Below are positions 12,622-13,426 of a stretch of DNA of 64,000 nucleotides, one piece after another. Below the pieces are notes generated by a model, which was given only the letters and a program-made list of their open reading frames with translations, searched no databases and was not told the DNA's origin. A program made the translations under genes and the position numbers. The DNA is from a virus (Duplodnaviria; Heunggongvirae; Uroviricota; Caudoviricetes), in the IMG/VR virus record IMGVR_UViG_2721755662_000004. One strand, given 5' to 3'. The first letter of the stretch is position 1. Each line of letters opens with the position of its first letter.

Positions 12622-13206
12622 ATGACCACTTTTACAAAAGAGCAGTTAATCAGTCATGTTAGTGAAAATGTAAAGGCGATGAAATTTGCAGTAAAACAGA
12701 CAGCATTCAAAAATTCTCTCGAGGCAATTGAGTTGGATTTAGCACTGGCCCTTGTTGCTCAGGCTTCGCTGGAAGCAGAGCCCGTGCTTTATATGAATCG
12801 ATTTACCGGAAAGACATTCTCACTGGAAGAGCAACCCGGTGCTGATAAGGAACCGGAAATATACGTGCCGCTATATGCTGCCCCGCCAGACAGCGCCGCC
12901 ATGCTTCAGGCTGGAAACTTTCGGGAAAAGAAGGGTTCGTCAACCAATAATTTTCGGGAAATCTCGGAAACGTCAACCAACCATCCGGTAACTCTGGATG
13001 GTTGGATAAGCTGTAGTGAGCGAATGCCGGATGACGGTCAGCACGTAATTATTTTATGTGATGGCGCATTCGTTCTTTATGCGCAATATCGAGACGGTGA
13101 GTTTTTTGATGTAGTCCGTGATGGTGATGAATTTTTCGAAACACAGAGCCGCAATGTAACCGACTGGATGCCGCTACCAGAACCGCCGCAGGAGGTGCGC
13201 CAATGA
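12622..13206 (+). CDS. DUF551-family protein
   Basis: ATG at 12622 with AAGGAG SD; C-terminal DGWISCSERMP...WMPLPEPP pattern; paralog at 55774..56502. Confidence 0.65.
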   Translation: MTTFTKEQLISHVSENVKAMKFAVKQTAFKNSLEAIELDLALALVAQASLEAEPVLYMNRFTGKTFSLEEQPGADKEPEIYVPLYAAPPDSAAMLQAGNFREKKGSSTNNFREISETSTNHPVTLDGWISCSERMPDDGQHVIILCDGAFVLYAQYRDGEFFDVVRDGDEFFETQSRNVTDWMPLPEPPQEVRQ

Positions 13207-13286
13207 ACTGGCCTGAAGCATTTGCAATTACAGGCGTTGCTATGGCTATCACTTTTTTAGTATATGTTATTTGTCGGTGGGGGTAA
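13203..13286 (+). CDS. 27-aa hydrophobic peptide translationally coupled to DUF551 gene
   Basis: ATGA start/stop overlap; MNWPEAFAITGVAMAITFLVYVICRWG; disrupted homolog after the second DUF551 gene. Confidence 0.35.
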   Translation: MNWPEAFAITGVAMAITFLVYVICRWG

Positions 13287-13321
13287 AAACGTTCGCCGGG
13301 ATTAACACCAAAGGAGGGAAT

Positions 13322-13426
13322 ATGTCGGATGATATATCACTGGCAATGGAAGGTGCGCTGGCTGTTATTGCTGTTGTGGGCGTTTACTGCCTGGTTGTGT
13401 TTTTGATGGATCGACTAGGGAACTGA
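13322..13426 (+). CDS. 34-aa hydrophobic peptide
   Basis: AAGGAGGG SD 6 nt upstream; MSDDISLAMEGALAVIAVVGVYCLVVFLMDRLGN. Confidence 0.35.
   Translation: MSDDISLAMEGALAVIAVVGVYCLVVFLMDRLGN

Follow-up and report, generated by a model that had tools for sequence, protein, structure and literature searches.

A 27-codon frame behind DUF551 genes of lambdoid prophages: a probable micropeptide gene and its inherited pseudogene

In the 64,000-nucleotide stretch of viral DNA analysed here (IMG/VR record IMGVR_UViG_2721755662_000004, Caudoviricetes; this whole stretch is called the window below), the stop codon of a gene for a DUF551-domain protein overlaps the start codon of a hydrophobic open reading frame (ORF) of only 27 codons, and a second DUF551 gene near the other end is followed by the same frame with a stop codon in third place. 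Is such a short frame a gene at all, and does the presence of one intact copy (copy A) and one dead copy (copy B) say anything about what its product does? The explanation that we prefer as a whole, with a probability of around 0.7, is that the frame is a real coding gene, that it travels as a portable cassette encoding an inner-membrane micropeptide, and that copy B is a pseudogene acquired by inheritance.

Conservation of the 27-codon frame

Both copies belong to the same 933W-like prophage, whose integrase lies where the window begins, with ynfF at the opposite end; Escherichia coli FORC_069 matches the window at 100%. Copy A is located in the nin region, where the gene order is DnaC-like helicase-loader gene, DUF1627, DUF977 and DUF551. 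The DUF551 gene of copy A (12622-13206, plus strand; 194 aa; Pfam PF04448, E=1e-20, 74.7 bits against a cut-off of 22) is annotated by RefSeq in FORC_069 as WP_000206792.1. The Shine-Dalgarno sequence (SD) of the next ORF, AGGAGGT at 13190-13196 on the plus strand, is found in the last five codons of this gene (QEVRQ), within Q-E-V and 6 bases 5' of the ATG. This ATG (13203-13205) overlaps the TGA of the DUF551 gene (13204-13206) in an ATGA, just as the initial annotation had described, and opens the intact 27-codon gene (13203-13286, plus strand). The product is MNWPEAFAITGVAMAITFLVYVICRWG, in which a single transmembrane helix is predicted, FAITGVAMAITFLVYVI.

Taken from the window alone, the 27-codon ORF is not beyond chance, as 53 ORFs of at least 20 codons overlap the 3.3 kb between 11500 and 14800. 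Its significance therefore comes from the comparison with other loci. The initial annotation had set beforehand that a frame not conserved in homologous loci would speak against a functional peptide, and the comparison shows that it is conserved. Among 120 IMG/VR loci sampled without bias, with the DUF551 C-terminus WMPLPEPP as the sole anchor, each DUF551 gene ending in QEVRQ or QEVNQ has a 27-codon relative at -4, the only exceptions being the two KEVRQ loci that belong to the copy B lineage, and all the copies outside that lineage are intact. We also scanned with a pattern in which the first six and the last four codons were fixed, with TGG or TAG at codon 3, and the internal codons were free. 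This gave 131 copies with 51 distinct DNA sequences, and with the loci added later the collection reached 56 DNA versions, 53 of them intact, that encode 32 peptide variants, every one exactly 27 codons long. A relaxed DNA pattern that demanded a proline codon other than CCT added only 10 more true members and no diverged ones.

The intact versions diverge by up to about one-third of their nucleotides, and no fewer than 13 distinct DNA sequences code for the most frequent peptide, MTWPEAFTTVGIAMAVALVVYSICRWG. Of the 203 nucleotide changes placed on a minimum spanning tree, 89 were synonymous, when 25% were expected (p=4.6e-9), and the other two sense frames reached only 9-12% on the same tree. 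Furthermore, not one of the 168 changes in unconstrained codons was a nonsense change (5.1 expected, P=0.006). The pairwise ratio of nonsynonymous to synonymous substitution rates (dN/dS) was around 0.1-0.3, with dS saturated between distant variants. Thus the earlier proposal of a functional peptide finds support, since the frame is conserved in homologous loci and evolves as a coding sequence.

Regarding the strand, there is an antisense frame that shares the wobble positions of the ORF (window 13203-13286), which is open in 52 of the 53 intact versions and whose changes are synonymous in 46% of cases, against 44% for the sense frame. The antisense ORF has inconsistent boundaries across contexts (start anywhere between -203 and +280, length 0-91 aa), and the mean BLOSUM62 score of the replacements is -0.34 in this frame against +0.36 in the sense frame. 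Because the antisense ORF has neither a consistent start, stop and length nor the better replacements, we take the sense ORF as the selected frame and reject the antisense ORF as the real gene. The case is a worked example of how a true small gene can be told apart from an antisense shadow frame; for a short hydrophobic ORF, dN/dS by itself does not reveal the strand.

The gene is also widely carried. The 84-nt ORF matches 1631 of 5426 complete E. coli genomes (about 30%) at 3105 places, of which 163 are on plasmids, with at most 7 per genome, a count of matching places whether intact or not. With tblastn we found it in 93 phage records, nearly all of them Escherichia, Stx (Shiga toxin) or Shigella phages, with one place per record. 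The Stx phage 933W and the phage Min27 are among the carriers. The 933W copy, MTWPEAFANVGTVMAVVLVVYSICRWR, is unannotated; it lies at 58826-58909 on the minus strand of AF125520.1 (2762-2845 of our locus L001), between L0139 and sokW/hokW, and its ATG overlaps the L0139 stop. In a GTDB scan with one genome per species, only Escherichia and Shigella had the ORF, apart from an Acinetobacter contig of 369 nt that is probably contamination. K-12 lacks the ORF; its DUF551 gene yfdS and the neighbouring yfdT (CPS-53) have no such frame after them, and therefore the K-12 small-protein datasets cannot help here.

RefSeq does not annotate the 27-codon ORF in the five records checked (FORC_069, Sakai, L002, L263 and L264), while a few GenBank submissions list the peptide as a "hypothetical" or "bacteriophage protein". 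The peptide is also absent from the supplements of "The Cryptic Bacterial Microproteome". Judging from these sequence comparisons, the ORF is very probably a real micropeptide gene, conserved and carried widely, which RefSeq leaves unannotated in the records checked.

Neighbours of the frame and the allele of copy B

What surrounds the 27-codon ORF was compared in 114 distinct contexts. In every one of them its start overlaps or abuts the preceding stop (ATGA, TGATGA or TAATGA), and an SD-like motif is found 3-16 nt upstream in 113, being AGGAGG in 81. The upstream gene may be a full DUF551 gene, a member of a family ending in ...LKRNGLISVEDVLR without a match in Pfam, or a gene that is truncated or not DUF551 but has a QEVN(Q/R) tail. 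The last codons of the upstream gene, which bear the SD, thus travel with the ORF. On the downstream side, the hok promoter and leader follow directly in 34 contexts, a 34-codon ORF and then hok in 12, and hok 80 nt or more away, with no 34-codon ORF, in 6; a hok leader thus lies 3' of the 27-codon ORF in 52 of the 114. A DUF4222 gene begins at +4 in 31 contexts and a small gene (MGKITFV) at +2 in 6, and other neighbours make up the rest. The stop of the ORF is about 12 nt before the hok promoter region.

Because the flanking genes vary on both sides, the 27-codon gene is a portable cassette made of its own SD, a start at or overlapping the upstream stop, and the 27 codons. Such a portable unit is what can be expected of mosaic phage accessory genes. 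In E. coli and Shigella the cassette sits in early accessory regions (nin, exo-xis/ea) of lambdoid prophages, Stx phages and phage-plasmids.

In most relatives the hok/sok locus comes straight after the 27-codon ORF. In the window this type I toxin-antitoxin locus occupies 13503-13827 on the plus strand (Rfam RF01794, 110 bits; Pfam HOK_GEF, E=1e-23), with the sok/hok-leader Rfam match at 13503-13677, the mok ORF at 13615-13827 and hokD at 13672-13827, and a 34-codon ORF stands in between. This hydrophobic ORF with a strong SD had been pointed out by the initial annotation and is indeed present at 13322-13426 (plus strand), with AAGGAGG at 13311-13317 four bases upstream. It encodes MSDDISLAMEGALAVIAVVGVYCLVVFLMDRLGN, a hypothetical protein (RefSeq WP_001278450.1, Sakai ECs_5710). 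Alignment with two loci that lack it, L252 and L034, delimits an inserted segment of about 175 bp (13281-13466, plus strand) between direct repeats GGGTAAAAACG (13281-13291 and 13456-13466), which ends with a perfect 22-bp palindrome, CGATATGGGAATTCCCATATCG (13435-13456; hairpin of -18 kcal/mol, z=-4.2). The 34-codon ORF is therefore a separate small cassette, inserted precisely where the 27-codon gene stops and ahead of the hok promoter. It is an orphan, with 7 matches among 1.84 billion representative proteins, and accompanies the 27-codon gene in 13 of the 114 contexts. In Sakai, ECs_5710 lies inside the translated ORF XECs145 (PMC5597208, S2 Table), for which a transcriptome RPKM (reads per kilobase per million mapped reads) of 79, a translatome RPKM of 346, a ribosome coverage value of 4.35 and a coverage of 0.99 were reported in lysogeny broth (LB) (PMC5597208). 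These data show transcription and translation immediately 3' of the 27-codon gene in a lysogen culture.

Copy B is part of the Ead/Ea22 cluster, which closes the prophage on its right side, just before ynfF. Its DUF551 gene (55774-56502, minus strand) encodes 242 aa (PF04448, E=8e-20, 71.9 bits against a cut-off of 22) and has the same ATGA junction as copy A. As had been noticed at the outset, it is trailed by a homologous frame whose third codon is a TAG: MT*PEAFAIVVAAISIALIVFAICRWG* (55694-55777, minus strand), with TAG in place of TGG at 55769-55771 and, in addition, valine in place of the near-invariant Gly11. The two DUF551 genes are only 34% identical overall and have almost the same DNA in patches of the linker (…FRE.K.SSTNNFR…DGWISCS.RMP), and of the tail together with the start of the peptide. 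These shared patches (12900-13206 against 55774-56080) point to patchwise recombination within or between prophages.

The TAG did not arise in this genome: it is present in 17 of the 17 sequences of the copy B lineage, whose further differences are only two amino-acid changes and one frameshift. With the TAG fixed, then two nonsynonymous changes and a frameshift, and with Gly11 lost, copy B is an inherited, lineage-fixed pseudogene in decay. The copy B region (121 nt) occurs at 99% identity or more in 44 complete E. coli genomes, O104:H4 strains included, at 100% in the Shigella phage POCJ13 and at 98.3% in 75/02 Stx. Neither an intact copy nor a DUF551 tail was found within the first 50 kb of POCJ13 that were scanned. 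This result, together with the one place per phage record, means that the dead allele exists without a live partner. The 27-codon gene is probably dispensable, and the combination of one live and one dead copy is explained by the inheritance of a pseudogene on a mosaic module.

We also considered whether the peptide is made as a fusion with DUF551. Programmed frameshifting was rejected, since upstream the -1 frame stays open over just 13-18 codons or so, and no slippery heptamer was seen by eye in ...CCGCCGCAGGAGGTGCGCCAATGA. A natural fusion was rejected as well: a protein cluster joins the peptide with DUF551 proteins of 121 aa, but these do not contain the peptide sequence and the grouping is a clustering artefact.

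Some observations on the surrounding genes can be recorded here. Unrelated hydrophobic ORFs of 26-57 aa, for example MNKCNALLYAMVIGFGLAAGIRVYIAWESLINLAWSAIRG and MALFIAGAVIGGCLTWLACWYNRKDY, lie at or overlap the DUF551 stop in seven other IMG/VR loci (L012, L102, L022, L037, L058, L105 and L106), a recurrence that may be no more than what the general abundance of small membrane ORFs in phage early regions would give. Residues 51-122 of the copy A DUF551 protein (12772-12987) matched polyubiquitin in a phmmer search of PDB, with whole-sequence E-values down to 1e-6 and no single stretch that passes; these are probably weak scores summed over the ubiquitin repeats (TGKTFSLEEQP against TGKTITLEVEP). 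The stretch 13500-15750 is dense in addiction and regulatory modules: besides hokD/sok (13503-13827) it holds a Doc-family toxin (14235-14720) preceded by a small ORF (14037-14216), a RelE/ParE-helix-turn-helix pair (14771-15419, minus strand), and the isrK and C4 antisense RNAs with their targets (15542-15740). A second Hok/Gef gene is at 43617-43757. Convergent with the copy B cluster there is a gene for a polyvalent protein of 2784 aa (47018-55372; LPD38, LPD5, LPD1 and MuF_C domains), as in L0134 of 933W. Between this gene and the cluster, an annotated ORF of 63 aa (55496-55687, plus strand) had no Pfam match, so that its reading as a truncated Panacea/SocA antitoxin is unsupported.

Alternative explanations

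Several points weigh against the explanation that we prefer. The sequences compared share ancestry and belong for the most part to a single species, which means that the counts do not represent independent events, and the scan pattern fixed the ORF length, so that alleles with insertions or deletions would escape it. The synonymous excess alone cannot separate the sense frame from one antisense frame. In the Sakai ribosome profiling only intergenic ORFs were scored, and XECs145 overlaps just the last 22 nt or so of the 27-codon ORF. Searches of Pfam, NCBIfam and PHROG gave only sub-threshold matches, the best being PTR2 (E=0.005, 16 bits against 27), OadG_rel_small (E=0.022, 14.8 against 25) and phrog_38566 (E=0.0065), and the literature search found no paper containing the peptide sequence. 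Finally, the mechanism proposed below is read from composition and conserved positions only. In one alternative, the ORF would not be a gene but a chance frame kept by common descent or by hitch-hiking with the DUF551 tail and the hok promoter, or else the real gene would be on the antisense strand. The many chance ORFs of similar size in the window fit this idea, as do the lack of a call by RefSeq or its Prokaryotic Genome Annotation Pipeline (PGAP) in any record checked and the openness of the antisense frame with its equal synonymous excess. Nevertheless, we judge it highly improbable: the 53 intact versions show no nonsense or length change over a divergence of up to about one-third of the nucleotides, the cassette has retained its SD, start and stop while both flanks were swapped, and the antisense ORF fails on boundaries and on the quality of its replacements. 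Another idea accepts the translation and denies the product, so that the ORF would be a coupling or spacer element that hands ribosomes downstream or affects the adjacent hok promoter and leader. The start coupled to the upstream stop in every context agrees with it, and so do the downstream genes that often begin 2-4 nt past the ORF stop (the DUF4222 gene and the MGKITFV gene) and the closeness of the stop to the hok promoter region. However, the amino acids themselves are constrained: W3, P4, A6, R25 and W26 never change and G11 and A15 hardly ever do, the replacements are conservative and the synonymous changes in excess. The downstream partner is moreover inconstant, and in nearly half of the contexts it is a hok locus with a transcription of its own, so we hold this reading to be quite improbable. 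For the same reasons, namely a downstream gene that varies and purifying selection along the whole peptide, the ORF does not look like a leader peptide or a regulatory upstream ORF.

The remaining alternative is the one that the initial annotation had in mind when it suggested, from one intact and one dead copy, a peptide that is possibly toxic or dosage-sensitive. The product would be a membrane-damaging toxin, type I- or holin-like, whose dose has to be limited, hence the inactivation of the second copy. The peptide is small and hydrophobic, as type I toxins are, and is predicted to sit in the membrane, hok/sok is its neighbour in 52 of the 114 contexts, and the phage-collection records with one place each, like the live and dead pair of the window, would agree with a limited dose. 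However, the dead allele is fixed in its lineage and was found in POCJ13 with no intact copy in the 50 kb scanned, while E. coli ECMA0423 and S. flexneri SFBU1023 each carry two different intact copies, and some genomes have up to 7 matching places (whether intact or not). Therefore, the suggestion of toxicity or dosage sensitivity is left unsupported, and the locus serves as a worked example that a dead copy beside a live copy is no evidence of toxicity. Furthermore, no antisense RNA of a described (Rfam) family was found over the ORF (13150-13300), and sok lies downstream and belongs to hok; the promoter-like sites on the minus strand (3 found, 1.7 expected) were not in excess; and no homology to toxin families appeared in Pfam, NCBIfam or PHROG. 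Type I toxins have their own promoter and a restraining structured leader. Here the start overlaps the preceding stop, 113 of the 114 contexts show an SD-like motif, and this strong, exposed SD and coupled start favour efficient translation, unlike the restrained hok, ldr, ibs and tisB. Nor is the placement that of a holin or lysis cassette, since the holin and lysozyme genes are at 23474-24227 and the peptide is encoded in the early nin and ea regions. We therefore consider a toxin unlikely.

The predicted peptide and its place among small proteins

Under the explanation that we prefer, a real gene for an inner-membrane micropeptide, the 27 aa have a grand average of hydropathy (GRAVY) of 1.13 and a hydrophobic core of 17 residues. 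The conserved positions are M1, W3, P4, E/D5, A6, G11, A15, Y/F21, R25 and W26, with G11 kept in 31 of the 32 variants and A15 in 30. With its length and its one predicted transmembrane helix, the peptide falls within the size class of small regulatory inner-membrane proteins (50 aa or less, one helix). The ORF would be translated from early phage transcripts by means of its own SD and by termination-reinitiation at the upstream stop. The peptide would then span the inner membrane once, with the N-terminus out and the C-terminus in, an orientation that we infer because an acidic residue at position 5 precedes the helix and the invariant R25 follows it. The invariant or nearly invariant W3-P4, G11-x-x-x-A15, Y/F21 and R25-W26 may serve in helix-helix packing with a host or phage membrane protein or with the peptide itself; the G11xxxA15 spacing is that of a common helix-packing motif. 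The changing neighbours of the gene point to no particular partner. A single-pass inner-membrane peptide acting in this way is the most likely role of the product, tentatively and at odds that we put slightly below even, and it would assist the phage as an accessory factor without being essential to it.

YohP, AcrZ, MgtS, KdpF and CydX are small single-pass inner-membrane proteins of E. coli. YohP also has 27 aa, and the peptide is like this group in its one predicted hydrophobic helix, its short polar or aromatic ends and a size that made annotation miss it. The insertion of YohP into the membrane is a topic of PMC7549839. None of these five proteins showed sequence similarity to the peptide in profile searches, and in contrast to them it is not part of the chromosomal core, being prophage-borne, mobile and translationally coupled to the preceding gene. 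The likeness to the type I toxins (Hok/Gef, Ldr, Ibs, TisB, DinQ and ShoB) is that of a small hydrophobic peptide, often encoded directly upstream of hok/sok. It differs from them in having no dedicated promoter or leader, no antisense RNA that could be found, a strong exposed SD and no HOK_GEF match, and several intact copies can coexist in one genome.

With the small accessory genes in the exo-xis and nin regions of lambda and Stx phages (orf60a, orf61, orf63, ea8.5 and Ea22) the 27-codon gene shares the neighbourhood and probably the early expression. The products of these genes are, as far as is known, soluble, whereas the 27-codon product is predicted to span the membrane, and the exo-xis literature that we searched does not mention it. 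Its upstream partners belong to the mosaic Ead/Ea22/DUF551 group; the Ea22 variant V2 of Stx phages carries DUF551 (PMC10834534). The 34-codon ORF (ECs_5710/XECs145), which shares the intergenic space, is likewise very small and prophage-borne, has a strong SD and encodes a hydrophobic orphan. However, it is unrelated in sequence, has its own repeats and hairpin, is annotated by RefSeq and has published ribosome-profiling support.

One could go further and see in the peptide a new family of phage-borne membrane effector peptides, present in Stx phages including 933W and active in early lytic growth or in lysogenisation, an idea that we find quite unlikely. Its activities could then be the modulation of a host inner-membrane protein or of the membrane potential, superinfection exclusion, or the tuning of the adjacent Hok killing. 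If this were true, the peptide would be a previously unseen player in the biology of Stx prophages. In any case, the gene is a well-supported addition to the growing set of bacterial and phage micropeptides, and should the peptide prove to have a phenotype, this would matter for the early accessory regions, as yet poorly understood, through which the induction of Stx prophages is influenced.

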